Virus record (IMG/VR): IMGVR_UViG_3300027901_000001
DNA: 64,000 nucleotides
Reading direction: 5' to 3' (one strand)
Origin: a virus
Of the stretch, positions 2,482 to 55,146 are shown piece by piece; position 1 is the stretch's first letter, and each line of letters begins with the position of its first letter. The notes under the pieces were generated by a model. It made no database searches, was not told the origin of the DNA, and was given only the letters and a program-made list of their open reading frames with translations. A program made the position numbers and the translations under genes.

Positions 2482-2894
2482 CTGTCCCCTTCATCCTGCC
2501 GCTCAGCAGCCACCAGTTCATCGAGTTTGTCATCCCCTTGCAAGGCAGTCGACTGCCCCTGCTCGAAATCCACCTGGTCGGCCTCCAGGGCGAATGTCAG
2601 CTCCCGGACCCGGCCCTCCAGGACCTTGATATAGTCGGCGGCGATGTGGCCGTGGGGGTCCTCCGATACATCGTAATCGGCCTTCAGGTCGCGCAGCTCC
2701 TGGTCGGTAGGAAACGGCATCGCGCCCCGGACCGCCGCGTCCCATATCTTGACCGGTACGTGGAACGTGTAAAAGCGAGCACAGCCGGACCGATGCTCCG
2801 CCACTCGCAATAGCCCGGTATTGGGTTCCTCCAAAACAAAAATGACCTCGTATTGCCTGTCGCCGATTCTCAGCTTGTCACCCAACGTGGCCAT
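2478..2894 (-). CDS. hypothetical protein, paralogue of 2894..3382
   Basis: Shares VPVxxWDAAVxGAxPFP and LEGRVRELxF with its neighbour. Confidence 0.75.
   Translation of the reverse strand: MATLGDKLRIGDRQYEVIFVLEEPNTGLLRVAEHRSGCARFYTFHVPVKIWDAAVRGAMPFPTDQELRDLKADYDVSEDPHGHIAADYIKVLEGRVRELTFALEADQVDFEQGQSTALQGDDKLDELVAAERQDEGDR
2543..2558. repeat. dispersed palindrome copy 1
   Basis: A-GGCAGTCGACTGCC-C; core 2544-2557; in the GQSTAL codons. Confidence 0.95.
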
Positions 2895-3382
2895 TACTTC
2901 TCCAACTCTTTCAATATTCGTTCCTGGGCCTCCCGAACAGCCGTGGCCGCTTCCGTTTCCGTCAGCTTCAACGCTGCTATCTCCTTTACCGCGTCCAATG
3001 AACGAGAGACGTGTTTCTCCAGCGCCTTCTGAAAAGCCCCGGCCCTGAATGCCAGCTCGCGTACCCGGCCTTCCAGCGCCTGAACATACTTTTCCGAGTC
3101 TTCCCGTGCGAACGAGAGATTGTCGCTGGAATTCCAGGTGTGAGCCTCAAACTCGCCCTTCAGCTTCGCCAGCTTCTCAATCGAAATTTCGGCAGGAAAA
3201 GGAGCCGCTCCCTGGACCGCTGCGTCCCACAGCTCGACCGGTACCAGGAATTGATGGTCCTCGGGAGTCTTCACCGTGACGAACCGGTCCTCCCCGGTAT
3301 CGAAATCACCAAGGGAGACCACCTCGAACCGCCTGCCGTTGATCGTTACACTGTCCCCTCGTTTGACCATCGCCCACCTCAA
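2894..3382 (-). CDS. hypothetical protein, paralogue of 2478..2894
   Basis: As above, with a coiled-coil C-terminal extension. Confidence 0.75.
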   Translation of the reverse strand: MRWAMVKRGDSVTINGRRFEVVSLGDFDTGEDRFVTVKTPEDHQFLVPVELWDAAVQGAAPFPAEISIEKLAKLKGEFEAHTWNSSDNLSFAREDSEKYVQALEGRVRELAFRAGAFQKALEKHVSRSLDAVKEIAALKLTETEAATAVREAQERILKELEK

Positions 3383-3609
3383 TCCGGCAACTTAGAGCCG
3401 TGTTCTTTCTGCCATCGCCACATTGCGCTAGCCAACAAGCGCGCCTCCCGTACCTTGTCAGGGTCCACGCCCTCTATCTCGGCATAAGCGGCCCACACCT
3501 GAACGGCCATCGGAGCCAGCTTGTCCCGCGCCCGCAGCACAAATACGGGCTCGTCATCGGCCACCTTGGACAGACAGCCGCCCTTCAGTTCCTCAGCTCT
3601 CGTACCCAT
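3379..3609 (-). CDS. conserved phage hypothetical (DEPVFVLRARD motif)
   Basis: DEPxFVLxARD motif recalled from small phage proteins. Confidence 0.7.
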   Translation of the reverse strand: MGTRAEELKGGCLSKVADDEPVFVLRARDKLAPMAVQVWAAYAEIEGVDPDKVREARLLASAMWRWQKEHGSKLPD

Positions 3610-3775
3610 AGTCCCTTTCCTGTCTCCTTTCCGCCTTCTCTATCTGCTTCTCCCAGCTCTTGACGGCCTCCTTCGCCACATCACTGCGGCCCGCGTGGTA
3701 GCCCATACGGTAGGCCAGGACCGGAATCGCAGCCCCAATTACAACCAGGGCCGCCGTGACCAAATAGGTGATCAT
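3593..3775 (-). CDS. small membrane protein
   Basis: ATGA overlap at 3772-3775; N-terminal hydrophobic helix. Confidence 0.6.
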   Translation of the reverse strand: MITYLVTAALVVIGAAIPVLAYRMGYHAGRSDVAKEAVKSWEKQIEKAERRQERDYGYES

Positions 3776-4239
3776 GGGTTGTCCCTCATCCACTTCGTGG
3801 CCTTGATCGCGTTCTCGGCAGCGCGAAGATTGCGGCGCTCCCTGCGACGGGCGGTGTCGGCCTTCACCGCCTCCCCGTACTCGCGCAGCTCACGCTCTTC
3901 CGGCGTCTCGGCCAGCTCCTCGACGGCACGGCGCGCCTTACCGATCTCGTCCATCGCGTCCTCGACCCGATTGTAGGATTTCTCCAAATGGTTGTGGACG
4001 CCGTACAGGTAAATCTCCAGGCGGTGAAGCTCGTCCGGACTGCAAGGGGTCAGCTCCGGCTTCGGGCATGAGCACTCCCCAACCATCTCTTCAAGGGTGT
4101 CGGCGCGGGCATCGTACCGCTCCCTCTCGATCGTTCGGTCCATGTACCTCTGCGCCAAAACCCAGAAAGTGAAGGCTGCCCCCGCGCTGGTAACCGCAAC
4201 CACCATCCAAAAAACGAATTTTGGGAGCTTGTTGTTCAT
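3772..4239 (-). CDS. membrane-anchored coiled-coil protein
   Basis: FVFWMVVAVTSAGAAFTFWVLA transmembrane (TM) segment, charged helical remainder. Confidence 0.7.
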   Translation of the reverse strand: MNNKLPKFVFWMVVAVTSAGAAFTFWVLAQRYMDRTIERERYDARADTLEEMVGECSCPKPELTPCSPDELHRLEIYLYGVHNHLEKSYNRVEDAMDEIGKARRAVEELAETPEERELREYGEAVKADTARRRERRNLRAAENAIKATKWMRDNP

Positions 4240-4245
4240 GGCCGC

Positions 4246-4326
4246 CTACTCCAACACGAGAACTCCGACTGTGCAGCAGACAAGCGTGAACACCATCGAA
4301 AAAACGACCTTTGCGTGCCTACTCAT
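4246..4326 (-). CDS. 26-aa hydrophobic peptide
   Basis: MSRHAKVVFSMVFTLVCCTVGVLVLE fills the gap between genes; not in ORF track. Confidence 0.35.
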   Translation of the reverse strand: MSRHAKVVFSMVFTLVCCTVGVLVLE

Positions 4327-5089
4327 CGCCGTCGCCCTCTTTCGGCCCAGAGGCGTTACTTCCGGCGATACGCTCCAGGAAATTCTCCGAATCGGCCCTA
4401 TTCACCATACCCAACCGGTGTAACATTTTTTCTCCGTCGCCCTTGTTCAGAACCAGCTCGCCCGCCAGACCGCCTCGGTTCCATATTCTTACCTTGTCAT
4501 GCACCCCTTCGGTCCTGAGCCGAGCACTGGTAAAAACCGGATGGTCAACGCCCACGAACTCCTGCTCCACCGGCTCTATCCTGGCCCCCAGCGCCGCCAA
4601 CATCTTGTCGGCCTGCATCAAATATCCCACCTGCTGCACCCGAAGTAAGTCGGCAAATCCCACAAGCATCAGCGCCTTCCATCCGTTGATGGCCAGCTCT
4701 TCCCTGCGAAGGGCATCCAGCAACTTTTGCGTCCACGGATCGCTCTGATCACGAGCGTTCAGGGAAGACAGGTGATTCGCCGCCAATTTCTCCAGACCGG
4801 GCATCACGTCGTTCTTCATCTGGTAACTCCAGATGTCGTGGGCCACAGCCGCCAATGGTGCACGGAATCCTTCAAAGGCGGTCAGAACCAAGCCCACGAT
4901 ACGCTCCGCGCAATCAGGACAGACATAAACGCCGCCCTCATCCTCGCCTATATCCCGGTCTTTCGGGTTCGGCGCGATGTCAAGCACCACCGGGGAATGG
5001 GACTTACCGCAAAGGCTACAACGCCCGCTAGCCCATTGAACCCCCGGCGGTGGGCTTGCCGTTTTCGGTACCAGCATCACCTTCTTCAT
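4319..5089 (-). CDS. zinc-finger-containing hypothetical protein
   Basis: CSLC...CPDC pairs. Confidence 0.7.
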   Translation of the reverse strand: MKKVMLVPKTASPPPGVQWASGRCSLCGKSHSPVVLDIAPNPKDRDIGEDEGGVYVCPDCAERIVGLVLTAFEGFRAPLAAVAHDIWSYQMKNDVMPGLEKLAANHLSSLNARDQSDPWTQKLLDALRREELAINGWKALMLVGFADLLRVQQVGYLMQADKMLAALGARIEPVEQEFVGVDHPVFTSARLRTEGVHDKVRIWNRGGLAGELVLNKGDGEKMLHRLGMVNRADSENFLERIAGSNASGPKEGDGDE

Positions 5090-5255
5090 GCTCCTTCTCC
5101 TTCAAGAAATCGCCGCCTACTTTAGCGATAAAATCATGGACCGCCTGCCGAATGAGCACGGCCACAGGAATCCTGGTGCGCTTGCTCAACTCTCTGAGCT
5201 TTTCGACCTGCTCCGGCTCGAAATGGCAGGTGTATATCTTCTTCTTACGTCCCAT
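5028..5255 (-). CDS. ribbon-helix-helix DNA-binding protein
   Basis: IYTCHFEPEQVEKLRELSKRTRIPVAVLIRQAVHDFI matches the RHH pattern. Confidence 0.75.
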   Translation of the reverse strand: MGRKKKIYTCHFEPEQVEKLRELSKRTRIPVAVLIRQAVHDFIAKVGGDFLKEKEHEEGDAGTENGKPTAGGSMG

Positions 5256-5664
5256 TCTCCGGGTCTCTCGCCTCCTCCATACCGCCGACAGCATCGGACA
5301 GGTCGTTCATGTACTTCGCAATCTCGGCCATGCGCCGGGGCAAATTCTCGGTGGAAGTAGATTCAAGGCTCTGGATAGCTTCCCACAAACTGGCTATCGC
5401 ATACTCGGCCGCCTCGGGATCGACCCGCGCCGCCAGCTCCTCGATGGTCGGCTTCTCTTCTGGCTCGCGCACCAGCCTCAGCGCGGTCAGCTTCTTGATG
5501 TCCGGGATGAGGTGCTCGGAATAGGTCAGCCGCCACTGTCCCGGCCCCATCTCCTCCAGATAGATGCGACCCATCCCTTCCGTGATCTTGTACTTGACCC
5601 CGGTGACTTTCCTCAACTCCAGAATAGGAAGCCCAGTGCCCTCCAGCTCGATTCCCTTCAGCAT
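5245..5664 (-). CDS. hypothetical protein
   Basis: ORF track; GGAG ribosome site upstream. Confidence 0.65.
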   Translation of the reverse strand: MLKGIELEGTGLPILELRKVTGVKYKITEGMGRIYLEEMGPGQWRLTYSEHLIPDIKKLTALRLVREPEEKPTIEELAARVDPEAAEYAIASLWEAIQSLESTSTENLPRRMAEIAKYMNDLSDAVGGMEEARDPENGT

Positions 5665-5667
5665 CCT

Positions 5668-5931
5668 TTACTCCTTCAACCGGACCAGAACCTCATGCTT
5701 TTTCAGCGGACAGTCCCTCAGCACCTCCTCCTTCGTCATATCCGTCATGTAGGTTGGGCAAACAGGACCGGGATATTCCCCGCCCGATCCCCACCCGAGA
5801 CAAATCCGCTCGCCCTCATCGAACCGAAAAAAAGGACAGTTGCAAAAGACAACATCCTCGTCATCTTCATCGTGATCCGACCCGCACTGGGCCTCCAGAA
5901 TCTTTGCCGTTCCGCTTCTCAGAACTCCCAT
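5668..5931 (-). CDS. Cys-rich hypothetical protein
   Basis: ATG at 5931 overlaps the upstream stop; CNCPFF, CP motifs. Confidence 0.6.
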   Translation of the reverse strand: MGVLRSGTAKILEAQCGSDHDEDDEDVVFCNCPFFRFDEGERICLGWGSGGEYPGPVCPTYMTDMTKEEVLRDCPLKKHEVLVRLKE

Positions 5932-6497
5932 TATCGACCTCCAAGGGTTGCGGTTTCCAGGGACGGCGTGAGCAGATCGCCGCCAACGCCGTACTCCGGA
6001 TTGTCCCACTTGAACAGCAAGGCACTCCCCTCACCCAGTACCCGAAACCCTGGCATGTGGTCACCATCCACGGTCACCATGTCCATCTGGTAGTACCGGT
6101 ACCAGAGGTTCCTGATGATCCGCTCCACGTCCTCGCACACCTGCTCGGTCAGCGGCTTACCACGGTACCGGCGCGTCTCCTGATCGATGAATTCGTCGAA
6201 CGCCTCCATCTTCTCCAGGTCGTCACGGAAAGCACGTCGCACCGCCAGCGGATAGGCCACGTTCTTGGGAACGATGCCTCGAAGGATAGCCCGTTTCAAA
6301 GCCTCCTTCAGCGGTTCGAGATTACCCACCAAGGGAAGGCCAGACGTGTAATCTCCCGGCCGGTCGCCATACCGAACGATCACTGTCTTCTCTCCCTTCG
6401 AGTCCCAGTGGACATAGAGATCCTCGCCTTTATATGTCCCCAAAAAATGGCATTTCAGGCAATTATCATGCCGATATTTCGGTTTCTCTTCAGGCAT
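5931..6497 (-). CDS. hypothetical protein
   Basis: ORF track; HDNCLKCHFLG motif. Confidence 0.7.
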   Translation of the reverse strand: MPEEKPKYRHDNCLKCHFLGTYKGEDLYVHWDSKGEKTVIVRYGDRPGDYTSGLPLVGNLEPLKEALKRAILRGIVPKNVAYPLAVRRAFRDDLEKMEAFDEFIDQETRRYRGKPLTEQVCEDVERIIRNLWYRYYQMDMVTVDGDHMPGFRVLGEGSALLFKWDNPEYGVGGDLLTPSLETATLGGR

Positions 6498-6777
6498 CGG
6501 CCGCGCCTTTCTTAAACAACTCGACCGCTCTCTCGACCCCTATACCCTCTTCATCCAGGTACCAATCACCACCCCACGCTCCGGCGTTTTTCCTCCTGCC
6601 CACCTCGAACTCCTCCCCCACTTCAGAGTCCTTAACTATCGGGCTCGGCAGGACCATCCGTACACACCGAAGGCGCAGCTTCGTCCACTTCTCGTCCGAA
6701 AGGTCCTCCACCACCTCCACAGCGATAATGCCACCCTCCTCATGGTAGAGACCCACCCTCTTTCCGTTGATGATCAC
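6490..6777 (-). CDS. hypothetical protein
   Basis: ORF track; AAGGAGG ribosome site upstream. Confidence 0.7.
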   Translation of the reverse strand: MIINGKRVGLYHEEGGIIAVEVVEDLSDEKWTKLRLRCVRMVLPSPIVKDSEVGEEFEVGRRKNAGAWGGDWYLDEEGIGVERAVELFKKGAADA

Positions 6778-6791
6778 CTAACCCTCCTTTC

Positions 6792-6834
6792 AAAAATCCC
6801 CGCCGCTTCATAGCCTCCCGGCTCCACGGCGGGG
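6792..6834 (-). terminator. GC hairpin with U-tract containing a kink-turn motif
   Basis: CCCCGCCG-UGGA-GCC-GGGA-GGC-UAUGAAG-CGGCGGGG followed by AUUUUU. Confidence 0.55.
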
Positions 6835-7001
6835 GACACTCCTCATTCAACACTTCATCTCAAATAAACGAATCCGGCCTGTGCCGGTGTCCTTAAACCA
6901 TATTCGCCTCCATTATTTGAGGTTTGCACCGTTCTATTATCCGCATCGTGCACGTAACAAGGCTGCATCTCCGGGTCGTGATCCGGCTCCCAGCATAAAC
7001 C

Positions 7002-11433: not shown

Positions 11434-11802
11434 CTACACCTCCTGGTTTTTCATTTTCGCCATCGACAGCTCATCTTCAGCCGCCTTGATGATCTGGAAC
11501 ACATGGCCCGGCAGCGGCTTCTCCACCAGGCTGACCTCGATAACCCGAAAATCCATCTCCATCTTCCACAGGCCCCTGCTCTTGGGTTCCGACACCACCA
11601 CCGCCGTAACATCTGGCCCCGTCGCCCAGTCCATGCCAAGGCAGTCGACTGCCTTTTGGCGCGCCGCGCCCATGTCCCAGTACCGCTTCGGCCCAAACAG
11701 CCGCCGGGCTATCGCCTCCACGAACCACGGGGTTACGAGCCCGGCCGCCAGCAGCGGGGCCGACCTCCCTAAAAATTCACGCCTGGTCATCGGAGTAGGC
11801 AT
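11434..11802 (-). CDS. twin-arginine (Tat) signal protein A
   Basis: MTRREFLGRSAPLLAAGLVTPWFVEA. Confidence 0.7.
   Translation of the reverse strand: MPTPMTRREFLGRSAPLLAAGLVTPWFVEAIARRLFGPKRYWDMGAARQKAVDCLGMDWATGPDVTAVVVSEPKSRGLWKMEMDFRVIEVSLVEKPLPGHVFQIIKAAEDELSMAKMKNQEV
11638..11655. repeat. dispersed palindrome copy 2
   Basis: AA-GGCAGTCGACTGCC-TT, perfect 18 bp; in the KAVDCL codons. Confidence 0.95.
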
Positions 11803-13791: not shown

Positions 13792-14354
13792 CGACCACCT
13801 CCAGATGTTTCACGTGAAACATGGCCCAGCGCCACACTTGGCGGCTCAGTCCAATGCCACTCGTTCTCCCCGACCAGAACGCCTTCCGCCCAGGCCCCGC
13901 TCGCTGTAACAAACCGGCCGGTGATCGTTTCGTGCCCTGCCAGACGTATCTCACCGCCGGTCCTATTCCACTCTTTGCACCTTTCCTCGTACTTCTTCAG
14001 CGCCGCTTCGTATTCCTCATCGGTCATCTCCCGGACGTAGGTAGGGGTCTCGGCATCATCATCCCATTCCCAAATCTCCCGCGTGGGTCTTTCCGGCGGC
14101 GGACAACGATAATCGAGTGTTTCCCGATCCATCTCCACGCTCTCACACCTCACAAATGGTTCCCCGGTGACAGGATGAACGTCAGTTGGCCACTTATCCC
14201 CAAGCATCTCCCGCTGAGACATACGAGGAGGAGGTGGCGGCTTCGACGGCTCCGGCACCTTGACCACCGTTCCGTCCGGCCACCGGACCTTGTAGGCCCC
14301 GTCGTGGTCCTTGAACAGCTCGGGCTCGGCTGATTCTCTACTCTTTTTCGGCAT
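13788..14354 (-). CDS. hypothetical protein ending HVSRETSGGGR
   Basis: ORF track; 3' end encodes the parS site. Confidence 0.65.
   Translation of the reverse strand: MPKKSRESAEPELFKDHDGAYKVRWPDGTVVKVPEPSKPPPPPRMSQREMLGDKWPTDVHPVTGEPFVRCESVEMDRETLDYRCPPPERPTREIWEWDDDAETPTYVREMTDEEYEAALKKYEERCKEWNRTGGEIRLAGHETITGRFVTASGAWAEGVLVGENEWHWTEPPSVALGHVSRETSGGGR
13806..13821. other. parS: canonical chromosomal-type ParB binding site
   Basis: Exact TGTTTCACGTGAAACA (18-bp palindrome 13805-13822). Confidence 0.85.
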
Positions 14355-16978: not shown

Positions 16979-17457
16979 AGTGCCCTCCGGCGCATCTCGG
17001 GGTCAACTGGTCGGGTCAGGGCTTCCAGAGGCGTCAGACCCAGTTTCAGGCGCTTGTAGACGGTGCTACGACCGAGCCCGCGCCGCGCCGCGTGCTCCAA
17101 AAATGTGGCCACCATTCCATTCAGTTTCACCTGACCTCGCTCGCCCGCCCGCGCCCGCGTACGACATCGATCGCTGCAATACTGCCGTCCCGGAACCGCA
17201 GGTCGCCCGCACAAGCCGCACGGATGGGTACCTTGCCGTTCCAGTCGCCGGGTCACCGGACCGCCTTCCAAAACCTCCTGGAAAATCAAAATCTCGACAT
17301 CCAGCTCCGAGTCAGCCTCCAGACGCTCAATCGCCCGTCCACGGCATTCCGCACAGTAAATAGCCCCCGGCTCGGCCGTCTCGCCGCATCCCAAGATGGC
17401 ACATCGCACCGGCTGGAAATATCGGGCAGTCGACTGCCTCCGGCGCGCCCCTAGCAT
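16969..17457 (-). CDS. zinc-finger / putative HTH protein
   Basis: CAILGC..CAEC, CGLC..CSDRC, GLGRSTVYKRL; ATG 6 nt after a -10 box. Confidence 0.65.
   Translation of the reverse strand: MLGARRRQSTARYFQPVRCAILGCGETAEPGAIYCAECRGRAIERLEADSELDVEILIFQEVLEGGPVTRRLERQGTHPCGLCGRPAVPGRQYCSDRCRTRARAGERGQVKLNGMVATFLEHAARRGLGRSTVYKRLKLGLTPLEALTRPVDPEMRRRALCR
17424..17439. repeat. dispersed palindrome copy 3
   Basis: G-GGCAGTCGACTGCC-T; core 17425-17438. Confidence 0.95.
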
Positions 17458-19931: not shown

Positions 19932-22900
19932 TTAGGCGACCGCCTCCAGCCAGCCTTTGCCCTGAGAATACACCCCGTCGCCGATGATGGCGATATCTTC
20001 GTCCTCCCACATCTGCTCGAAATCGGGGTCCGAAGCCCACGGCAGCACGACGATATGCAAGCCATGTTCAACGCCCTCCTGCATCTTCATCAGCCGCCGG
20101 GTCACCTCATTCATGCGCCGCGTTACGCTGGCGATCATCTTGAAAAGCCCAACTGAAACCTGGTCCCGGAAGTCCAAATAGACCTGCACATAAGCCGACA
20201 ACCGATCCGTGAGCTTGTCGCCCGTGATGACCGACTTCTGGTTCAGCAGCTTCTCACCCTCCCGGATAGCGACCGACCCCAGCTCCGCGCTCTCCCGGAT
20301 CACGGAATTCATCCTGGCTGTAACCTGGAGCACCTCGCGCACCAGATTCGTAGCGGTGATCTCCCTGGTAGGCACAGACGGCCCCTTACGCTTCCCGGCG
20401 CGCCGGGTTGAGATTCTGGCCATCTTGGCCAGCCGCGTCATGGCGTTGCGGCCCTCTGCGAACGGCCCGTACAGCTTCTTGGTCTCCGCCTCGAAAGACC
20501 GAGCAGCGTTGCCCAGGGGCGACCGCTGCATGGCGCGCTCGACCCCCGCCGTCCGCCGGATCCGCTCGGTCTCCTGGGCCGCGTGCGCCAGCTCTTCGGC
20601 CACCTCCTCCAGGTGGTAGACGGACCGGACGAACTTCCTGGTCTGGTCCACCGATCGCTCCAGCTCGCGCCGCAACTCCTGGTTGTCACTCCGCAGCTCA
20701 CCCACGGCCGCAGTGGCCGGAGCACGCTCGGACAGCTCTCCCTCGGTGACGCCGTACCTCTTCAGCAGGTCGCCGATCTTCTTCCCGGTGGACTTCCTCT
20801 GGGACAGATCCAGAACCGTGCGCGCCCGGCCCTGGTAGTTGCTGATATCGACATCCCTGGCCAGGGCTGCCTCGCCCAGTCCCAGCAGCAGCGCCGCGAC
20901 CACGGCCGCCTTCCCGGCCTTACTGAGCACGCCCTCGTCCAGCCCCTCCAGCTCCTCCAGCACGGCCTCCAGATCGGCATCGGTGCAGGACAGCACCGAC
21001 AAGTCGAACCAGTCCTCCTCGATCGGCCCTTCCATCAAAGCCAGGTGCAGATCGTTGGCCATCGACGCCGCGAGCTTCATCCCCTTGCTGTCGTGCTGTT
21101 TCAGGAACTTGACGATGTGCTTGCCCACCGCGTCGACGGACCCCTTCATGGGCTTGAAGCCGATGTCCTTCTGGTTGCTGTAGTGGACGGTGACCTTCAC
21201 GTCGCCATCGGCGTCGCCGTCCTTCTTGAAGGGCGCGACCTTGAACTTCACCTGCTTCGGACAGTTGACGATCTCGCCGGTCTTGGAACCCTTCGGCACG
21301 TCCGAGTACTCGATGATGACCTGCGGCGTGATGTACTGCGGCCCGAACCGGCAGAAAAAGTGCTTTTTCTTGAGCTGGGGCAGCCCCTTGGTCACCGTCT
21401 GGCACAGCTCCAGGGCGTCGCTCCAGCGGGCCTCGATCAGCTCGATGCCCTCCGTCTTCTTGGGAGGCTCTAGTTTACCGGTATAGAAGTCGGCGTCCCA
21501 TCCATCGGTGTAGAGTTTCTTCAGCTTCTCGGCCTTCGTTTTACTCATAATGTAACCGCGTTCGCGGTTCGTCCACTTACCCTTGAGAGCATCCGCGAGT
21601 CGAGCTGCCCGCGTCTTGTAACCGGTAGCAGAAGGGGCTCTCACGAGCATCTTATTCTTGGCATACCTAGCGGGAGAAATCTGGGGAGGTGCCTCTTCAG
21701 CTCTCTCCCAGAACAACTCGGCCAACTCAATACCTTCGGCCAGCTTGTAGGACGCCGTGCGGCTCACCCGCTTGCGGCCGGGCGCGGCCTGCACCAGCTC
21801 CAGCGTGCCCTTCTTGACGAGCTTCTTGAAGAAGCCGGTCACTACCTGGGGGCTGAGCCCGAACGCATACCCCAGGTCCAGCACGGATATCGTGCGGCCC
21901 GGCTTCTCCTTCATAAACGCTACCAGCTCGGCCTCGGTCGGCAGCTTTCCCTTCTCCGCCTCGTCCAGCTCGGCCGCTTCTACGGCCAACACGAAGTCCC
22001 CATATCCGTGCTTGACTACCTTGCCGGACCTGTCGGCGTAACCGATATGCGTGAGCTTCCCATCCCGTCGCAGCTTGTGAATGAATTGCTGGGCCACGTG
22101 CCTGAAATGGTCCTCATCGGCCCCTCTTCCGAACGTAGGCTTGAACTTCTTGTAGTACTGATCCCTGACCACCATATAGATGGCGTGCTTGAGATCCCCT
22201 TCCGTCCACTGCTTCTTCTTTTTGACCACCCTCGTAATAGGAGCAATGGAGAAGTCCTTGATGGTCGGCTCGACAGGAGCATCATCTCCCGTCTGACGCC
22301 CTTCTTCTAGCTCGACCTCCTCACGCACCAGCTCGGACCGGCCCTTCTTCTCCATGTTCTTAATCAGCTCCTTGACGAGCTTGCCTTCCTTGTTGTCGTA
22401 CACCTGGTGCGACCGACCGCTCTGGCCCTTGAACTTCTTGCCGCGCATCCGATCAAACTCGATGCTCTTGCCGTTGCCTTCCAGAGAAAACTCGCCGAAG
22501 CCCATGTGCTTGAGCTTCATGCCCGGCATGGCATCGCCGATCGAATTCAGGAAGGCGGTGTCGGCGTGGTAACTCTTGCCGTCGTAGTAGTGCTTGCCCT
22601 TCTCGGTGAGCAGCTCCTCCTCGATGGCCTCCTCGAACAGATTGTCCAGGCCCATGAGGTCCTCTTCCTTCTTCCGGGGCTTCAGCTTCGCCGCGTACAG
22701 CTTCTCCAGCACGGGCATCACTTTCTCCCGGAAGTACCGACCGGGATTGGCCCGCGCCCGCTTCATCTCGTCACGCGGAATCCCGGCCCCGCGAAAGGCC
22801 ACCTTCGCCACCTTCAGAACCTTCTTGGCCCAGGTCCGGGTCATCTGGAATCGGCGCATCAGATCGGACTCGCTGACGTTGCCTTCCTTGCTGGACACGA

Positions 22901-23474
22901 AATCGGAGATGGCGATGATGTCGGCCGGGAGCGAGATGGACTCTTCCAGCTCAGCCTCAAACAGATCGTTGAGGTCCTCCGACTCGAAATAGACGGGCTT
23001 GTGCTGCAACCCCTTCCTCTTGAACCGAGGATCGTGCTCGATGTTGAGCGGCGCAACGGCATGGGGCTCGTCCCTGTCGCTCCACAAAACCTTCGGCCAC
23101 ATCTTGCCGCCCCCCATCTTCACGAAGCCTACTACCTTCCCGTTGATCGGACCTCCGGCCTGCATCCCGATGTTCCGCAGAAACTTCCCGGTGTACCGAA
23201 CAATATCCCCTTTCTTGAACTCCTTACCGGACCGGCTGCCTTCCTCCAGCGCCCCCGCGAGCTGCCCGGCCAAGCCTTCCTTCTGGTACTTTTTCTTCAG
23301 CTCGGGCTCCTTGTCGTTCGTGGTGCTACCGGTCGACTTGTAGTGCGGCTTCGCACCCTTTTTATACATGTCCCAGGCCAGAGCAAAAGCCTTCTCGGTT
23401 GGCATGTGCCTCTTCATGGCCTTCACGGTCCCGGACCAGCCGGGCGGCGCTTTTTCGGTCAACGGTATGGTCAT
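19932..23474 (-). CDS. 1180-aa modular protein (basic/wHTH-like modules joined by L-x-E linkers)
   Basis: ATGA-coupled start at 23474; about ten acidic linkers; winged-helix-like module at about 21745-21950. Confidence 0.7.
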   Translation of the reverse strand: MTIPLTEKAPPGWSGTVKAMKRHMPTEKAFALAWDMYKKGAKPHYKSTGSTTNDKEPELKKKYQKEGLAGQLAGALEEGSRSGKEFKKGDIVRYTGKFLRNIGMQAGGPINGKVVGFVKMGGGKMWPKVLWSDRDEPHAVAPLNIEHDPRFKRKGLQHKPVYFESEDLNDLFEAELEESISLPADIIAISDFVSSKEGNVSESDLMRRFQMTRTWAKKVLKVAKVAFRGAGIPRDEMKRARANPGRYFREKVMPVLEKLYAAKLKPRKKEEDLMGLDNLFEEAIEEELLTEKGKHYYDGKSYHADTAFLNSIGDAMPGMKLKHMGFGEFSLEGNGKSIEFDRMRGKKFKGQSGRSHQVYDNKEGKLVKELIKNMEKKGRSELVREEVELEEGRQTGDDAPVEPTIKDFSIAPITRVVKKKKQWTEGDLKHAIYMVVRDQYYKKFKPTFGRGADEDHFRHVAQQFIHKLRRDGKLTHIGYADRSGKVVKHGYGDFVLAVEAAELDEAEKGKLPTEAELVAFMKEKPGRTISVLDLGYAFGLSPQVVTGFFKKLVKKGTLELVQAAPGRKRVSRTASYKLAEGIELAELFWERAEEAPPQISPARYAKNKMLVRAPSATGYKTRAARLADALKGKWTNRERGYIMSKTKAEKLKKLYTDGWDADFYTGKLEPPKKTEGIELIEARWSDALELCQTVTKGLPQLKKKHFFCRFGPQYITPQVIIEYSDVPKGSKTGEIVNCPKQVKFKVAPFKKDGDADGDVKVTVHYSNQKDIGFKPMKGSVDAVGKHIVKFLKQHDSKGMKLAASMANDLHLALMEGPIEEDWFDLSVLSCTDADLEAVLEELEGLDEGVLSKAGKAAVVAALLLGLGEAALARDVDISNYQGRARTVLDLSQRKSTGKKIGDLLKRYGVTEGELSERAPATAAVGELRSDNQELRRELERSVDQTRKFVRSVYHLEEVAEELAHAAQETERIRRTAGVERAMQRSPLGNAARSFEAETKKLYGPFAEGRNAMTRLAKMARISTRRAGKRKGPSVPTREITATNLVREVLQVTARMNSVIRESAELGSVAIREGEKLLNQKSVITGDKLTDRLSAYVQVYLDFRDQVSVGLFKMIASVTRRMNEVTRRLMKMQEGVEHGLHIVVLPWASDPDFEQMWEDEDIAIIGDGVYSQGKGWLEAVA

Positions 23475-27604: not shown

Positions 27605-28186
27605 TTATTTACTGAAAACGCGGTATTTTTTCCAAATGGTCTCCATAAATGAATTCGCCGCTTTGTCGACCGCCCTAAGAAACGCCGCCTTGTCCTTGCG
27701 CTCCATGTGTTCCGACTTCACGGCCTGGTCCAAATCGTCAATGAATTTCCGTATCAACCTCGATGACGCATCGTAGAACGGCGGCCTTTCCTCCTTCAAT
27801 TCTTGCTCCTCCTGTACCGGCGGCGTGTACCCGTGGTCCTTCTTGCCGGTCTGGGGCTTCGTGGTGTCCCTCTGGCCAGGCAGTCGACTGCCTGCCTCCT
27901 TGGCCAACCGCACCAGGTCGGCGTCGGGCACCTCGGTAATCGCACTAGCCACGGCCCGGCCGCGAGCATCGAAATAGACAATCCCCTGAGAACCGTTGGC
28001 CATCCTGAACCGATGCCGGTCCGGAATGCACTTCCGGAGCACGAAGCTCTCCAGCTTCCGGCGCTGCTCGGGATCGGACAACAGCGGCCATCCGCTCACG
28101 TTGTAATCGGGGTCGAACTCGGGGTGATCGACCTCGCCATCCAGCTTCTGCTGCTCGGTAAGATGGGAAAAAATATGCTCCAGCAT
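27605..28186 (-). CDS. hypothetical protein
   Basis: ORF track; start overlaps the upstream stop. Confidence 0.7.
   Translation of the reverse strand: MLEHIFSHLTEQQKLDGEVDHPEFDPDYNVSGWPLLSDPEQRRKLESFVLRKCIPDRHRFRMANGSQGIVYFDARGRAVASAITEVPDADLVRLAKEAGSRLPGQRDTTKPQTGKKDHGYTPPVQEEQELKEERPPFYDASSRLIRKFIDDLDQAVKSEHMERKDKAAFLRAVDKAANSFMETIWKKYRVFSK
27877..27894. repeat. dispersed palindrome copy 4
   Basis: CA-GGCAGTCGACTGCC-TG, perfect 18 bp; in the AGSRLP codons. Confidence 0.95.
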
Positions 28187-29220: not shown

Positions 29221-29472
29221 CTATCCTTGCTCTCGACGACCCTCAGCAACCAGGAAGAGGTAGTCGACTGCCTCTTTGCAGCCGTGCTCTTCGAGATATC
29301 CCCTTAAGGCTTTGTCCAGAATCCGGCCAGGGGTCAAGTTTTCGGCCTTGGCCTGGAGAAGTAGGGTCTCCCACATGGCCCGTGTGATCACCAGGACCAT
29401 CGCATCCCCGGCGTGCCTGATTATCTCCGATACGGCCTCATCTTCCTGGGAAAGCGCAATCGCTTTTGCCAT
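29221..29472 (-). CDS. small protein, possibly ribbon-helix-helix
   Basis: LVITRAMWETLLLQAKAENLTPGRILDKALRGYL. Confidence 0.55.
   Translation of the reverse strand: MAKAIALSQEDEAVSEIIRHAGDAMVLVITRAMWETLLLQAKAENLTPGRILDKALRGYLEEHGCKEAVDYLFLVAEGRREQG
29257..29274. repeat. dispersed palindrome copy 5 (one mismatch)
   Basis: GA-GGTAGTCGACTGCC-TC; in the EAVDYL codons. Confidence 0.85.
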
Positions 29473-43995: not shown

Positions 43996-44628
43996 TCAGA
44001 CACCTTCCTGCTTCTCCTTCTCCAGCTCCTGCTCGTAGTCATCATCCAGGGCGTACGCCGCCTCTTCGTGATGACTGCCTTCGTACGGATTCTCACCCCT
44101 CAGCCAGGCGGTAGTCCAGTTTCCGACACCCATCTGGATGTAGCCCGTGAGCCAGAGGAGCCCGGCGAGCACGTAGGAGGCAGTCGACTGCCCCACAGCC
44201 GCAACTAAGGCCGCCAGCACAAAGGCCCGCAGCATGGAAGCCTCGTATTGCTCAACGTGCACATGCTCATGGAACTGGACCGGCCGCCACGGCTTCCCCC
44301 TCGGGTGCCGCTTTAGCGGCCCGTAAAAGATCGCGTGCCCTATGGTAGATCCTCCCCAAGGGTACTTTGTCCCGTCCGGCAGCTCCCGCAGATACCAACC
44401 CTTCGGCCAACGACCCTCGCTCACCGGCCAGGAGCCCTTTTTCATCTCACAGGTCAGCGACGGGCCGCCCGGACCACCAGGCTTGGCAGCCGGATTATCG
44501 CGAGGATTTTCCCACTCCAGCCTGGTACCCCAGAGCGCTCGAATCAACAGGATACCCCCCCATACCAGCAAGTCCCACGGCAGGCAGAGCAGGTACAGCA
44601 CCAGGTGGCGCTTCGCCTTCAGGTTCAT
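43996..44628 (-). CDS. membrane-associated HExxH zinc metallopeptidase (DUF4157-like)
   Basis: TIGHAIF...HEHVHVEQY...NPYE..HHEEAAY; hydrophobic helices. Confidence 0.65.
   Translation of the reverse strand: MNLKAKRHLVLYLLCLPWDLLVWGGILLIRALWGTRLEWENPRDNPAAKPGGPGGPSLTCEMKKGSWPVSEGRWPKGWYLRELPDGTKYPWGGSTIGHAIFYGPLKRHPRGKPWRPVQFHEHVHVEQYEASMLRAFVLAALVAAVGQSTASYVLAGLLWLTGYIQMGVGNWTTAWLRGENPYEGSHHEEAAYALDDDYEQELEKEKQEGV
44178..44193. repeat. dispersed palindrome copy 6
   Basis: A-GGCAGTCGACTGCC-C; core 44179-44192; in the GQSTAS codons. Confidence 0.95.
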
Positions 44629-48511: not shown

Positions 48512-48522
48512 CCTTCAACCTC

Positions 48523-50340: not shown

Positions 50341-50350
50341 ACTCTACGTT

Positions 50351-53128
50351 CTACACCCCTTCTCGTTCCGCACCGCCCGCTTCGGCGGCCCGCGTTCGCC
50401 CTCCTCTGCGTGCTCTCTTGTCCCTCGCAGTAACTCCCGCCTCCACACCAGCAGCCACGAGCTTCACCGCCCGAGGATCTTTCAAAAAAGCCTCCAAAGG
50501 CTCAGCCGCCGCGCCACCTCTACCCCGAACCATGAAGGTTTCGGTCACAGCTACCTGAGCCTCCGCTGCGGCCTCCTGCCGGGCTGCCTCAACGGGCCTC
50601 TTTCCTTTTCCACGCCGCCGGGCCTTGGGTTCCGGCTTCTCAGTCTCCCTCCCCCGCCGCGCAAGCGCCTCGGTGGTCTTCGCGTAAATCCGCGCCTTCA
50701 TCTTCTCGACGCGCTCGATGCCGCGACCGCCTTCTTCCACAACGCCACTTAGCTCTTTCCCCAGATGCGAAAACTCCTTCCGCACGTCCATCCCTGCGGT
50801 TTCCATCCTTTTCAGACGCTCCATGCCCAGCCGGTCAGCCTCTGCATTCGAGCGCCTACGCGCATCCTCCTTTTCCTTAATATCTTCATCCAGCTCTGTG
50901 ATGTCCCTTCTGAGATTCTGGAGGGTCTGTTTCACCCCCTTATCCACCGACTCGGCCAGTCCCCCAAGGCCCACCATTTCGAGCGCATCCTTGGGCAGCT
51001 TGTCCACAAGGAACTGGACGATCTCCAGGATATTGGCCGCCCCCTGCTTCAACGCCCTGACCGTCTTCTGCAACCCGACATCGACCTTGAAGAAAAACCC
51101 CTCCCACATATCGATTACCCAGTCCATCGCGCCGCCGATCCCCTCCTTGATGAAAACCGCAACGGCCTTCGCGGACTTGCCGACGATCACAAACGCCCCA
51201 GCCATAACAACAGCCGCCGCCTTCACGATGGTCTTCACCCCAACAATCGTTGCAGCGATGGCGGCGGCCCCTGTCGCAATCATCATGGGAAGGTTCTTCA
51301 TGAACCACTTTCCAAAAGGCTTCAGCGTATCCTCCCACATGGAAATGGCACCGCCTTTGATCGCCTCCCAAGCATCGAGTCCCACCCGCTTGATCATCTT
51401 AAAGGCTGGACCCAGCTCCTTCTTCAGCACCCCCCAGATTTCCTTCAGAACCGGAGCGATCAGATCCCAGTTCTTGTAGACGAGATAACCGATCCCGGCG
51501 AAGAGCATCAGCTTGATGGACAGCATCCCAAATACTTTGCCCAGGCCACCAAAAACCTTGCCGAGAACTGCGAAACCACCGAGCATCTTGAATCCAATGA
51601 TCATCGGACCTAGCGACGTAACCACGTCGATGATGGCGTCACCCCATCCTTCGGTCATCGGCGCGACCTTCTGCAACCACTTGGCAACGCCTCCGAGTAT
51701 GCCGCCCCTACCCGCCAGCTTCTCCAGAGACGGAAGAATGCCGTGCACCAACCCGTGACGGCGTACATCCAAGAATAGCTGGAGCAGCTCGGCAAAGGGG
51801 CCGCCCTTCTTCCGCAAGTTGTCGATCGTGTCGCCCAGACGCTTCCACGCCTTGGCCTGACGCTTTACGACCATCGCATCGGTCTGGGAGGTCATCTTGT
51901 TCAGACGGTTGGCGAACCGCTCCTCCATCAGGTCCATCTGTTCGGAGAAGGTCCGCGCCGCGCCGGACGCCCCCTTTGCCATCCGGCCTAACGCGCCGGA
52001 AGCTCCTTCAATCGGCCCACGCATAGACTCTATGACCTTCGCGCCTTCTGCACCCGCCTTCACCATGAACTTGATGGACTCGGGGAGCTGTTCCAGCAGC
52101 CGGAACTTCCTGGTTTCGTCGAGCGAAGCGTAGACCTTCTGGATCTCCTGAATGAACAGAGCCGGGTCGTCCGCCATGACCTCGAAGGCTTTGTCGATGG
52201 ATCCGTAGGTTTCCGCGAGCCGGGCGGTCATCTCGGGGAACTCCCCGCCCAGGCCAGCAAAGGTGCGCGCCAACTCCCTCCGCGACTCCGTGAGCTTCTG
52301 CATCACGTCGACGGCCGCCTGGAACGATTGCTCATACGGACCGCCCAACACGCGCTGGGTCGACGCCGCCAGGACAGTCAGGGACTTGACGGTATCCTCG
52401 ACGCTTCCGGCCATACCCTCCGGCAACCCGGCAATGGCGGCATCAGCGGCCTTCAGCGCCTCCGGCATCTGCCGGATTGCGTCCGCACCCGCGCCGGACA
52501 CTTCTCCGATCTTGGTAATCTCGTCCAGAAGAAGACCCGCACCCTTGGCCCCCAAACCGTAGCCCTGGGCTAGGCTGGTGAGCGTGTCGGCGAGCTGGTC
52601 TCCGCTCAGAATGCCCGCCTGCATCAGACCGCCGATCTCCCGGACGTTCAGACCGTAATCTTCGAGCTTGGCCCCGGACTTGGTGAGCAAGGCAATGGCC
52701 TTGGTCATCTCGGCCGCGTCCACCTCTAGGGTAAAAGACACACCAGAGATGGCCCCTTTGTACTCGTCCACGGCCTTCTTGAACTCCCCCAGGCCAGCGG
52801 TGGCCTCCCGATAGGTCTTGCCGAACTGCACCCCCCACGACTCGATCTGATTGGCCTGGGCCGCGTCTCCGAGCCCAGCCTTTTCAGCCAGCCCCTCCAT
52901 CGCATCGGTGAGCCGGTGTACCTGAAGGAAGTTGAGCGCGTTGATGGCGTTGCCGAACTTCATCAACCCGGAGGTCTGCTTCCCCACCTGGCGGATACTG
53001 TCGGACATCTCCTCGAAGCCGCCGCCAATCTGCTCGGTAACCTTGACCGCGCCCTTGTCCTTGGCTCCGAACATGAAGCCAAGGCCCAAGAGCCGACCCA
53101 TGCCACCGCCGCCGCCAGTAATTGCCAC
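50351..53128 (-). CDS. tape measure protein
   Basis: 925-aa Ala/Gly-rich helical ORF with hydrophobic middle, between chaperone and LysM genes. Confidence 0.9.
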   Translation of the reverse strand: MAITGGGGGMGRLLGLGFMFGAKDKGAVKVTEQIGGGFEEMSDSIRQVGKQTSGLMKFGNAINALNFLQVHRLTDAMEGLAEKAGLGDAAQANQIESWGVQFGKTYREATAGLGEFKKAVDEYKGAISGVSFTLEVDAAEMTKAIALLTKSGAKLEDYGLNVREIGGLMQAGILSGDQLADTLTSLAQGYGLGAKGAGLLLDEITKIGEVSGAGADAIRQMPEALKAADAAIAGLPEGMAGSVEDTVKSLTVLAASTQRVLGGPYEQSFQAAVDVMQKLTESRRELARTFAGLGGEFPEMTARLAETYGSIDKAFEVMADDPALFIQEIQKVYASLDETRKFRLLEQLPESIKFMVKAGAEGAKVIESMRGPIEGASGALGRMAKGASGAARTFSEQMDLMEERFANRLNKMTSQTDAMVVKRQAKAWKRLGDTIDNLRKKGGPFAELLQLFLDVRRHGLVHGILPSLEKLAGRGGILGGVAKWLQKVAPMTEGWGDAIIDVVTSLGPMIIGFKMLGGFAVLGKVFGGLGKVFGMLSIKLMLFAGIGYLVYKNWDLIAPVLKEIWGVLKKELGPAFKMIKRVGLDAWEAIKGGAISMWEDTLKPFGKWFMKNLPMMIATGAAAIAATIVGVKTIVKAAAVVMAGAFVIVGKSAKAVAVFIKEGIGGAMDWVIDMWEGFFFKVDVGLQKTVRALKQGAANILEIVQFLVDKLPKDALEMVGLGGLAESVDKGVKQTLQNLRRDITELDEDIKEKEDARRRSNAEADRLGMERLKRMETAGMDVRKEFSHLGKELSGVVEEGGRGIERVEKMKARIYAKTTEALARRGRETEKPEPKARRRGKGKRPVEAARQEAAAEAQVAVTETFMVRGRGGAAAEPLEAFLKDPRAVKLVAAGVEAGVTARDKRARRGGRTRAAEAGGAEREGV

Positions 53129-53133
53129 CTACA

Positions 53134-53312
53134 TCATCTCCGAGATTTCAACCGCGCCGCTCTCCACCGATCCAGGTTTTCTTTTTCGTCCGCGAACCTC
53201 CGACGCCTCCCACACGGCATCTTCATCAAGACATCGTATGGTTGATGCAAAGCCTCCATCAGGTAGAGGACCTCTGCCTCCAGCGCCTGGAGGTTGCCGA
53301 AGGGAAAAAAAA
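53134..53312 (-). CDS. -1 frameshift extension of the tail assembly chaperone (gpGT-like)
   Basis: Open frame PFGNLQALEAEVLYLMEALHQPYDVLMKMPCGRRRRF...SRR, stop at 53134-53136. Confidence 0.7.
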
Positions 53313-54320
53313 GGTTCGCTGCGTCACGTCCAGTTCCGTCACGAATTCTCGCTTACAGAACTGGCATTTGATGTCTATTTCCATATTGATATCCGGTTCG
53401 TTGAGATAGAAATTCTCCCGTAGCTGGTCGCGGTCTCCAGAGGTCCACCCCTTCACGATCGGATAAAGCTGCTCCGCCTCCTTGCTGAGCTTGATCTTCT
53501 TAGCCGACCCAGCCCCATAGACGAAATCGTCGAGCCCCAGCCTCACGCTTTTTTCGTTGATGGACACCAGCCGCATCATGATGGCGTAGGTTAGAATCTT
53601 GAAATCGTCCGTGTCAGACGTTGCCACGGCCCTCATGATCTTCTCCTGCGGAAGCGAAGAAACACGCCACACGATCTCATCGCCGCTGTCGAGCAGCTTT
53701 ACCGAGAAGTCCCGCTTGCCCGGCTCCGCCATCTCGTAGGTTTCCAGGTGTCCCAGGTTCACCTGGTAGCTGCCCTCTCGCTGGCAGTTGTCGATGGGAC
53801 ACCGAATGTCCATCTCGTACATATCCTTGCGCCGCTTCCAGTGCGTAACACGCCGGATCGAAACCAGCAGATGCTTCCTGGACCCCATCGGCAGCCGGTG
53901 GATCGCCTGGGTAATCTTGCCCTTTTCGGTGAGCGTCCCGATGCGCTCGGTGCAGTTCACCATGATGCCGGTCAACCGATCGATGATGTCGATGTTGTCG
54001 TTGCTGATCAGCTCCTCTTCGTCGCCGCCCAGCGACTTAACGTGCACCTCGTTGTGGACCACCCGATCCTCGTCCAGGTAACCACCGACGATAGTGAACA
54101 CCCCGCTCTCCGCAGCCGCGTCCGTGATGGTCTCATAGTCCCCGCTGCTATCCTCAACAACATCGCCCTGAAGGGCCTGCTGAAGATGCGGCGACGGCGT
54201 TCCCCGCTCCAGCCCCGGACCGCCAGGCGGCGCGGGCTGTGGTGCTGGCAATTCACCTGGTTGTCCACCTGCCAGATTAACCGGTGCCTTGGCCTCGGCC
54301 TTTCCTGATCCTGCTCCCAT
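53259..54320 (-). CDS. T4 gp26-like baseplate-hub / tail assembly chaperone
   Basis: VKSLGGDEEEL...LLVSIRRVT...RCP..NC...C.FC; immediately upstream of the tape measure gene. Confidence 0.75.
   Translation of the reverse strand: MGAGSGKAEAKAPVNLAGGQPGELPAPQPAPPGGPGLERGTPSPHLQQALQGDVVEDSSGDYETITDAAAESGVFTIVGGYLDEDRVVHNEVHVKSLGGDEEELISNDNIDIIDRLTGIMVNCTERIGTLTEKGKITQAIHRLPMGSRKHLLVSIRRVTHWKRRKDMYEMDIRCPIDNCQREGSYQVNLGHLETYEMAEPGKRDFSVKLLDSGDEIVWRVSSLPQEKIMRAVATSDTDDFKILTYAIMMRLVSINEKSVRLGLDDFVYGAGSAKKIKLSKEAEQLYPIVKGWTSGDRDQLRENFYLNEPDINMEIDIKCQFCKREFVTELDVTQRTFFFPSATSRRWRQRSST
53304..53312 (-). other. slippery site for -1 ribosomal frameshift
   Basis: ACC TTT TTT TTC (T8 run; T TTT TTC heptamer). 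Confidence 0.7.
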
Positions 54321-54354
54321 CTTCTCCTCCTTCTGTAGCTCCCACTACATTCAC

Positions 54355-55146
54355 CTATTGGATAATCTCGGACAGCCGTTCTATCCAACGGCTGCGCTCC
54401 TCTCCTTTCAACCTTCGCCTTCTGCGTCTCTTCTTTTTTTCACCCCCTATCGGCGTCACACGGCGCAATGGCGGCCCGAGGGGCACGTGGTACCGGGCGA
54501 TGTTCCCGGTCCCCATCACACCACTGGAGGCCCTGGTAGGCCCTACCTTGATAGGGGTCAAAACCTCTCCTGGAGGCGTCGCCTGCTCGGAGGCAGTCGA
54601 CTGCCTTTGGGGAATCGGCCGAATGGCCGTTATCTTGCACTTGTTGATCTTCTCAATCCGATTCTTTGCCGTCTTCTCGTGCGCCTCGCACACTGGAATA
54701 TATGCACGCCCATCTGCCCACTCGTAAGACTTGGTGGCCGGGCTATCACAGTACTTGCACTTCTGAGACTTCGTGGCTTTGCCCTCGACGAGGGACTCGG
54801 ATTTCGGGGGCTCTGGACCACCTGCGGCCGGGCGCGTGGGCGCACGCGGGGGCTGCTTCTTGGCGGTCTCGTCCTCCCCCTCTTTTCCCCCTTTGCCGGG
54901 CTCAGGAGCCGCTTTACTGCCCGGACGCGCCGGAGGCACCCTATCCCCCTTCCGCCGCTTCTTCTTGTCCTTGCTGGGCCTCCTCTTGCCGTACAGAGCG
55001 TCCTGCTCCTCCCCCTCCTCATCGCCCTGCATATTCAGGAAAAACACCGACAACGGAACGAGCTTCACCGCCGGAGCCGTCGGACCGTACATCCCGATGG
55101 TCCCGATGGGAGCGCTGACAGCGCGTGTGCTCATTCCGTACGTCAT
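54355..55146 (-). CDS. Lys/Pro-rich protein with a zinc-finger module
   Basis: CKYC...CEAH; LVE-G linker. Confidence 0.65.
   Translation of the reverse strand: MTYGMSTRAVSAPIGTIGMYGPTAPAVKLVPLSVFFLNMQGDEEGEEQDALYGKRRPSKDKKKRRKGDRVPPARPGSKAAPEPGKGGKEGEDETAKKQPPRAPTRPAAGGPEPPKSESLVEGKATKSQKCKYCDSPATKSYEWADGRAYIPVCEAHEKTAKNRIEKINKCKITAIRPIPQRQSTASEQATPPGEVLTPIKVGPTRASSGVMGTGNIARYHVPLGPPLRRVTPIGGEKKKRRRRRRLKGEERSRWIERLSEIIQ
54591..54606. repeat. dispersed palindrome copy 7
   Basis: A-GGCAGTCGACTGCC-T, perfect 16 bp; in the RQSTAS codons. Confidence 0.95.

Follow-up and report, generated by a model that had tools for sequence, protein, structure and literature searches.

Dispersed inverted repeats are known from Cluster O mycobacteriophages (Corndog and relatives), which carry 34 copies of a 17-bp dyad repeat, 5'-TGTTCGG-N3-CCGAACA, whose function is unexplained (PMC4351075). 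The arms of this repeat, described in 2015, are invariant and about a third of the copies lie in genes; the authors predict a dimeric binder and note that these phages encode proteins with ParB-like domains (PMC4351075). Here we describe an array of this known but unexplained kind in a distant T4-like lineage. Its unit is the 14-bp perfect palindrome GGCAGTCGACTGCC, first noticed in a 64,000-nt stretch of the IMG/VR virus record IMGVR_UViG_3300027901_000001 (the window). The window corresponds to bases 98-64097, on the minus strand, of the complete record (191,623 bp with a 94-bp end overlap, 58% G+C), which we refer to as G000 and which apparently comes from marine sediment. Gp23 capsid, Gp20 portal, a gp21-type protease and baseplate wedge proteins identify G000 as a distant T4-like myovirus. 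When 10 kb was compared by megablast with the 50,697 phage genomes on deposit, no relative at the nucleotide level was found.

The Cluster O repeat is the closest published parallel. As in G000, inverted arms are invariant, and copies spread over the whole genome, many of them between genes and others within, and are not tied to promoters; the G000 array thus has the features of a Cluster O-type dispersed dyad repeat. On the other hand, Cluster O phages are actinobacterial siphoviruses of about 70 kb whose sites are denser at one end, whereas G000 is a 192-kb myovirus with evenly spaced sites. Its palindrome is a gap-free 14-mer, and its centre is shaped by restriction-site avoidance. What is new with respect to Cluster O, and constrains the mechanism, is the even spacing, the retention of orthologous sites over deep divergence, the concerted, lineage-specific re-spelling of the word between sister lineages, and the conflict with restriction-site avoidance.

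The nearest characterised mechanism is that of KorB, a CTP-gated clamp which is loaded at dispersed OB palindromes of the IncP plasmid RK2 and then slides (PMC11790492). In both cases a palindrome is dispersed over a mobile replicon, with some copies far from promoters. G000 combines a palindrome in the 13-16-bp range of ParB-parS and KorB-OB sites with a protein on the same replicon that has a ParB-type fold and a helix-turn-helix (HTH), and this candidate reader is predicted to share the N-terminal domain and HTH fold of KorB and ParB (Z 9.8). Unlike the KorB system, G000 has no ParA and no known KorA-like partner, its candidate reader carries a fused methyltransferase, and its site is unrelated in sequence. 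ParB-parS and Noc-NBS are broader kin of this likeness. Fusions of a ParB fold to a methyltransferase are common in phages, and their role is unexplained (PMC12704722).

Three further systems can be compared. HIP1 (GCGATCGC) of cyanobacteria is an over-represented palindromic 8-mer present in thousands of copies per cellular genome (PMC5861425). The G000 array resembles HIP1 in its quasi-regular spacing, its occurrence inside and outside genes and its link to a methyltransferase, but it consists of 24 copies of a 14-mer private to a phage lineage. The stoperators of Cluster A mycobacteriophages are asymmetric sites oriented with transcription, found in temperate phages with an immunity repressor. 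G000 shares with them 20-30 dispersed short sites, some in genes, with a spelling that appears to co-evolve with a phage protein between lineages; unlike stoperators, its site is symmetric, and we saw no lysogeny genes in a search that was not exhaustive. Localized single-strand interruptions occur in T5 and phiKMV-like phages, whose nick motifs are asymmetric and strand-specific, and the origins of P2 and phiX174 lie inside their rep genes. G000 likewise has an exact short dispersed word, with a copy inside an HUH-type gene. Unlike in these systems, however, the word is symmetric, and HUH gene and array do not always occur together.

The palindrome array of G000

The window holds six exact copies of the palindrome and one with a single mismatch (GGTAGTCGACTGCC), as listed below; gene positions are those of our own crude gene caller.

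Window 2544..2557 (genome 61541), exact copy inside a 138-aa gene, 2478-2894, minus strand, read as GQSTA
Window 11640..11653 (genome 52445), exact copy inside a 122-aa gene, 11434-11802, minus strand, read as KAVDC, with GGCGCGCC 4 nt away
Window 17425..17438 (genome 46660), exact copy in a gap between called genes, with GGCGCGCC 4 nt away
Window 27879..27892 (genome 36206), exact copy inside a 193-aa gene, 27605-28186, minus strand, read as GSRLP
Window 29259..29272 (genome 34826), one-mismatch copy near the end of an 83-aa gene, read as EAVDY
Window 44179..44192 (genome 19906), exact copy inside a 210-aa gene, 43996-44628, minus strand, read as GQSTA
Window 54592..54605 (genome 9493), exact copy inside a 263-aa gene, 54355-55146, minus strand, read as RQSTA

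The original prediction, made from the window alone, had placed all seven copies correctly. Its further observations that they are read in three frames (QSTA, AVDC or AVDY, and SRL) and that they avoid the AT-richer locus were confirmed, the lower-GC stretch at window 30-44 kb being free of copies. Two generalizations held less well beyond the window. A purine on the left and a pyrimidine on the right flank all seven window copies, whereas genome-wide 21 of 24 copies have A or G at -1 and 16 of 24 have T or C at +1. Location inside open reading frames applies to six of the seven window copies, taking called genes as the measure, but not to 9 of the 24 in the genome. The window copy outside called genes, at 17425, lies within a 162-aa open reading frame that the gene caller rejected, about 25 nt downstream of a promoter-like TTGACC...TATAAG pair.

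In 100 dinucleotide-preserving shuffles of the window, the 14-mer was not matched once. A count over the whole genome, which the original prediction had proposed as a check, revealed a genome-wide array of 20 exact and 4 one-mismatch copies, in addition to two sites with two mismatches. The palindrome is the most over-represented of all 10- to 16-mers in G000, and about half of the copies extend to 16 bp (A...T). On average, one site occurs per 8 kb or so, and neighbours are at most 16.5 kb apart. The sites are spaced more evenly than by chance, with a coefficient of variation of the gaps of 0.49, whereas random placement would give 0.94 (p = 0.00025).

Fifteen of the 24 copies lie within genes, in the three frames seen in the window (QSTA, AVDC, GSRLP). 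The nine that are not fully in a called gene exceed expectation, since only 13.5% of positions are so placed (p = 0.003). A stop triplet adjoins 8 of the 24 copies against 5% expected (p = 1.6e-5), and copies after a stop often have the next Shine-Dalgarno sequence close behind. One copy, at genome 139908, fills the spacer between two tRNA genes in a region (130-141 kb) with large tRNA gene arrays. Another, at genome 76414, directly precedes a Shine-Dalgarno sequence, and about 40 nt upstream of it, in the interval 76340-76440, are TTGACA and the T4-late-promoter-like TATAAATA. The consensus of sigma-54 promoters is GG-N10-GC; by inspection, the palindrome offers GG-N9-GC, one base too few, and was rejected as such a promoter. 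At three copies (genome 46660, 52445 and 126948), GGCGCGCC stands exactly 4 nt from the motif, the last time as GCGCGCC; these neighbours are at window 17441-17448, window 11628-11635 and genome 126937.

The sequences around the 24 copies have nothing in common beyond a preference for a left-hand A and a right-hand T, and the repeated unit is thus no larger than 14-16 bp. Copies inside genes align without gaps with orthologues, indicating that they arose by substitution. These two observations rule out an inserted mobile element. The motif also imposes rare codons on the genes that hold it: AGT (11% of Ser codons), CGA (7% of Arg), ACT (11% of Thr) and GCA (10% of Ala). Together with the conservation described next, this bears out the earlier proposal that selection acts on the DNA and not on the protein.

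Conservation and re-spelling in relatives

Relatives were gathered by their capsid protein or, for L284 and L285, via the methyltransferase gene described below. The original prediction had suggested examining conservation in relatives, and this proved informative. L284 and L285, which have diverged from G000 by about 26% in DNA, contain two exact copies of GGCAGTCGACTGCC each. One lies at codon 69 of GroES in L284, L285 and G000 alike. In L284 the other lies at the g229/g230 junction, again as in G000. The DNA around these conserved copies is 74-78% identical, while the 14-mer itself is identical at 14 of 14 positions. Purifying selection thus holds the word in place at the DNA level.

In other relatives we found arrays of different words. 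In G003 (67% capsid identity) the word is GGCAATTGATTGCC, built as GGCAAT-TG/CA-ATTGCC, in 11 copies with even spacing (p = 0.006); its asymmetric centre, TG/CA, is common to all 11. G006 has 11 copies of GCACCCGGGTGC, a word also present in the distantly related phage L259. The array words of the remaining relatives are CGCAATCGATTGCG in G009, GCGAAATCGATTTCGC in G010 and L268, TGCAACCGGTTGCA in L073 and TGGCCCCGGGGCCA in G005. The skeleton GCA-N2-CG-N2-TGC is common to most array words of the clade. As in G000, the sister arrays are enriched between genes (6 of 11 copies in G003, 7 of 11 in G006). On the other hand, no type of dyad array is present in G001 or G002, which are complete genomes with 77% capsid identity, or in the fragment G008.

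The re-spelled sites partly keep their positions. Four G003 copies lie in or beside orthologues of site-bearing G000 genes. The G003 orthologue of the gene at window 54592 carries GGCAATCAATTGCC at the matching linker, read as GQSIA where G000 has RQSTA, and the orthologue of the gene at window 29259 carries the palindrome of G003 about 10 codons away.

Restriction-site avoidance at the centre of the palindrome

The centre of the G000 word contains GTCGAC, and the relative G004 (84% capsid identity; a 42% fragment) shows how this hexamer can be lost. Four orthologous copies survive in G004, as GGCAGTCGATTGCC, GGCAGACGACTGCC, GGCAGACGATTGCC and GGCAGTCG-CCG-ACTGCC. They are GTCGAT, GACGAC, GACGAT and GTCGCCGAC variants with intact arms, and each is altered just enough to abolish GTCGAC. 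Throughout the G004 sequence this hexamer occurs 0 times against 52 expected. The corresponding figures are 1 of 69 in G005 and 76 of 87 in G000; the latter rules out that the palindrome of G000 is a restriction target under avoidance there. L283 has no GTCGAC in 16 kb and carries GGCAATCGACTGCC.

Avoidance of 6-bp palindromes is general in these phages. In G000, 21 of the 55 testable 6-bp palindromes are at or below 10% of expectation, including CAGCTG (0 of 108 expected), GCCGGC (0 of 136), GAGCTC (0 of 101) and CGCGCG (0 of 100). The purge extends across G001-G006, and the set differs in each relative, which implies hosts that would be rich in type II restriction systems. In every genome the array has a centre hexamer that escapes the purge of that genome. 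The conflict between the array and restriction-site avoidance is visible: the centre is edited and the arms are preserved. Judging from these sequence comparisons, the arms and the central CG are probably under long-term selection, and host restriction pressure on the centre may be one force that re-spells the array.

Occurrence outside the clade

Searching IMG/VR for exact matches yielded 30 hits, all of them single, and no other contig bearing an array of GGCAGTCGACTGCC; the 14-mer was in none of the papers searched. We also scanned bacteria, using one genome per species (185,579 species genomes), and obtained at least 120 matching stretches. Among the first 120 stretches, these were singletons in unrelated taxa with no common context, one repeat in a metagenome-assembled genome (MAG) excepted. 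The original prediction had named a common host repeat as the finding that would speak against it. Among the matches listed, the 14-mer is not iterated in bacterial genomes, and REP/RAYT, HIP, uptake and Chi sequences were rejected on this basis. The exception is the Bacteriovoracales MAG APA_bin_12, in which the 14-mer lies within a longer repeat at several contig ends (L155, L156, L191, L200, L217, L228, L231). MAG contig-end repeats (Bacteriovoracales, Gemmatimonadota) have no similarity to the phage.

Candidate reader proteins

We searched for proteins that might read the array. The winged-helix modules at window 19932-23474, put forward in the original prediction, gave no PHROG match and showed no link to the motif. 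A phyletic screen for genes common to G000 and G003 and absent from G001 and G002 returned five.

Genome 155116-156348 (L012:5116-6348), outside the window, 410-aa fusion of a ParB-like N-terminal domain and HTH to an MT-A70 adenine methyltransferase
Genome 164994-165380, 128-aa PD-(D/E)XK restriction-endonuclease-like protein, 66% identical in G003
Genome 147634-148464, 276-aa MmcB-like PD-(D/E)XK nuclease, whose gene starts 10 nt past a motif copy
HAD_SAK_2 protein
g262, helical protein without a family match, present in G000, G003 and G004

The two PD-(D/E)XK nuclease-like proteins are shared with G003 only. A 63-aa HTH protein encoded at genome 123790-123981 is a further candidate. No gene is common to all array genomes and missing from G001 and G002, so that none of the candidates fits every genome. 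The canonical ParB of G003 was rejected as a reader, because homologues occur in G001 and G002, which have no array, but not in G000.

The fusion is the only ParB-fold DNA-binding protein of G000. Its predicted structure has a mean predicted local distance difference test score (pLDDT) of 85. Residues 3-222 fold like KorB-CTP (8qa8, Z 9.8), pNOB8 ParB (5k5d, Z 9.8) and Spo0J (1vz0, Z 8.5), and also match the ParB DNA-binding domain on parS (6s6h, Z 6.3) and the DNA-binding domains of KorB and SopB. Residues 224-408 match METTL3 and MTA1 in the structure comparison. PHROG ParB-like families match residues 18-219 (E value 9e-17); the Pfam ParB_N match is sub-threshold. The fusion is found in G000, G003, L283, L284 and L285 and is missing from the complete genomes G001 and G002, which lack the lattice of sites. 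The fusions of G000, L283, L284 and L285, which use a GGCAGT-type word, have nearly identical HTH segments. That of G003 differs strongly from them, whereas conservation of the methyltransferase half extends to G003. Taking into account its fold, its pattern of presence and the covariation of its HTH with the word, we regard the fusion as the best candidate reader.

A second candidate is an HUH Rep_1-like gene at genome 126214-127440 (L010:12214-13440), which would be unusual for a T4-like phage. Its product has zinc-ribbon cysteines, and orthologues occur in G001, G003 and G004; the HUH (HVHLH) and Y-x-x-K-G motifs are invariant across four genomes. The Pfam Rep_1 match (E value 2.9e-6) is below the cut-off, and that to REP_ORF2-G2P is also sub-threshold. 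A profile of the protein found no relative in the PDB, and its structural model, with a mean pLDDT of 41, was too poor for a structure search.

We also found a second dispersed palindrome in G000, (AT)GTTTCACGTGAAAC(AT), which is identical to the chromosomal parS consensus TGTTTCACGTGAAACA of ParB papers. There are five exact copies.

Window 13807-13820 (genome 50278), parS-type palindrome
Genome 83876, parS-type palindrome
Genome 126799, parS-type palindrome
Genome 140582, parS-type palindrome
Genome 165446, parS-type palindrome

A copy just upstream of a ResIII helicase gene is kept in L284 and L285. These sites may recruit the ParB of the host or may serve the fusion.

Concerning a role in partition, the original prediction had considered a dispersed centromere. 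The complete G000 genome gave no match to ParA (PF13614, PF01656) or to the canonical ParB HTH (PF17762), and a partition centromere is therefore not supported. The sites, moreover, are spread evenly and not clustered.

Interpretation of the array

Taken together, the dyad symmetry, the dispersal and the DNA-level selection fit a putative two-fold-symmetric DNA-binding system, much as the original prediction had supposed. We infer that a phage-encoded protein of such symmetry docks or is loaded at the 24 copies, which would make up a lattice spanning the chromosome, and tentatively assign this explanation a probability of about 40%. The outer arms, GGCA...TGCC, and the central CG would be the parts that the protein reads, on double-stranded DNA. 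Its task would depend on coverage of the whole chromosome, at about one site per 8 kb, and not on particular promoters. In a possible mechanism, a nucleotide-gated clamp of the ParB/KorB type would load at each site and spread over the flanking few kilobases. The clamp could be the ParB-like::MT-A70 fusion, which would then carry its methyltransferase along the phage DNA. That the fusion is the specific reader is doubtful. Slightly more doubtful is the full scheme, in which a site-loaded, sliding adenine methyltransferase would mark the whole phage chromosome and the spelling would change together with the reader when host restriction enzymes target the centre. If any of the candidates on this short list is the reader, large phages would possess a chromosome-wide marking or coating system, and one of the candidates comes from the large phage family of ParB-fold::methyltransferase fusions.

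Several observations weigh against the fusion or against a symmetric binder altogether. No gene tracks the arrays perfectly across genomes. G006 (90% complete) has the GCACCCGGGTGC array without a ParB_N or MT-A70 match, and in G004 the sites persist in edited form although the fusion is missing and the 42% fragment includes the syntenic region. More than 4,400 full-length homologues of the fusion are encoded on phage-sized contigs, and in four unrelated fusion-bearing phages we found no clear array of 12-16 bp in 14-21 kb. The five canonical parS-type palindromes of G000 could equally be the sites of the fusion, and the HTH of G003 may differ merely because this phage is more distant overall. 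Broad protection by methylation is not evident, since more hexamer palindromes are purged in G000 than in relatives without the methyltransferase. Invariance at all 14 positions in G000 is stricter than in most binding sites, and the asymmetric centre of the G003 word suits a perfectly symmetric reader poorly.

The chief rival explanation is that the sites are recognized or nicked by the HUH (Rep_1-like) endonuclease, giving single-strand interruptions or priming points all along the genome. We consider this unlikely, if the least unlikely of the alternatives. The exactness over 14 positions would be in keeping with an enzyme, and the even spacing with priming or nick sites. G000, G003 and G004 each have their own word inside the Rep-like gene, much as gpA of P2 has its origin within its own gene; the G003 copy is about 30 codons away and in another frame, and was thus gained separately. 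In G000 the gene holds both dispersed palindromes, the parS-type copy and the array copy being 150 bp apart. The conserved catalytic motifs and the sub-threshold Rep_1 and REP_ORF2-G2P matches agree with an endonuclease, and neighbouring genes resemble end-handling proteins (the MmcB-like PD-(D/E)XK nuclease and a weak Gam-like match). However, gene and array are dissociated in two relatives: G001 has only the Rep-like gene, and G006 only an array, no Rep-like gene being detectable there. G002 has neither. The Rep-like loci L280 and L281 have their local palindrome outside the gene, at distances of 4.2 kb and 0.3 kb respectively, and contain no GCA-N2-CG-N2-TGC sites. A symmetric site nicked on both strands would amount to a double-strand break, the five-bp stems are too short for extrusion, and the fold model is poor. 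To our knowledge, known Rep_1 nick sites are not palindromes. A weaker possibility still, which we think improbable, is that the phage recruits or titrates a host protein and that this protein reads the sites. G000 carries TGTTTCACGTGAAACA-type sites but gave no ParB HTH match, which makes it plausible that host DNA-binding proteins are used, and the presence of GCACCCGGGTGC in the distantly related G006 and L259 could reflect a common host factor. Against this, the bacterial matches listed are singletons from unrelated taxa, apart from the unrelated MAG repeat, and the spelling differs between close phage relatives.

Two further explanations seem to us highly improbable, and equally so. The motif might act as a small intercistronic RNA hairpin in processing, stability or translation control, which would agree with the enrichment between genes, often with a stop codon directly in front and the next Shine-Dalgarno sequence shortly behind; a palindrome also yields the same hairpin from either strand. 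The hairpin (a 5-bp stem with a UCGA loop) is nevertheless weak, at -6.4 kcal/mol, and has no U tract. Its folding in context is no better than that of shuffles (z -0.4 to -1.8), and Rfam gave zero matches in the window; an intrinsic terminator or known RNA element was rejected on these grounds. An RNA role would fit poorly with the 15 copies inside genes and the one between two tRNA genes, and it leaves the even spacing along the DNA and the full dyad symmetry unexplained. The array might, on the other hand, have no function, being a by-product of biased repair or methylation-linked mutation, as proposed for HIP1, or a selfish short element. A type II-like hexamer lies at the centre of the motif, genes for methyltransferases and small PD-(D/E)XK nucleases are present in the phage, and the asymmetric centre shared by all 11 G003 copies hints at copying. 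But the flanks are unrelated and free of insertions and deletions, hence nothing was inserted, and the even spacing, the positional conservation and the minimal, arm-sparing edits in GTCGAC-purged genomes point to selection.

Other repeats in the relatives

Two of the relatives carry additional repeats. The flanks of the GCACCCGGGTGC copies in G006 are asymmetric (TC...AG); they point one way between 17 and 125 kb and the opposite way near the record ends. Alongside this array, G006 has a second dyad family, GTGCA-N5-TGCAC, in 18 copies (L113-L122). In G004, a non-palindromic 20-mer, CCGCTTCCGCCAGTGCCGCC, is repeated 8-9 times (L096-L099).

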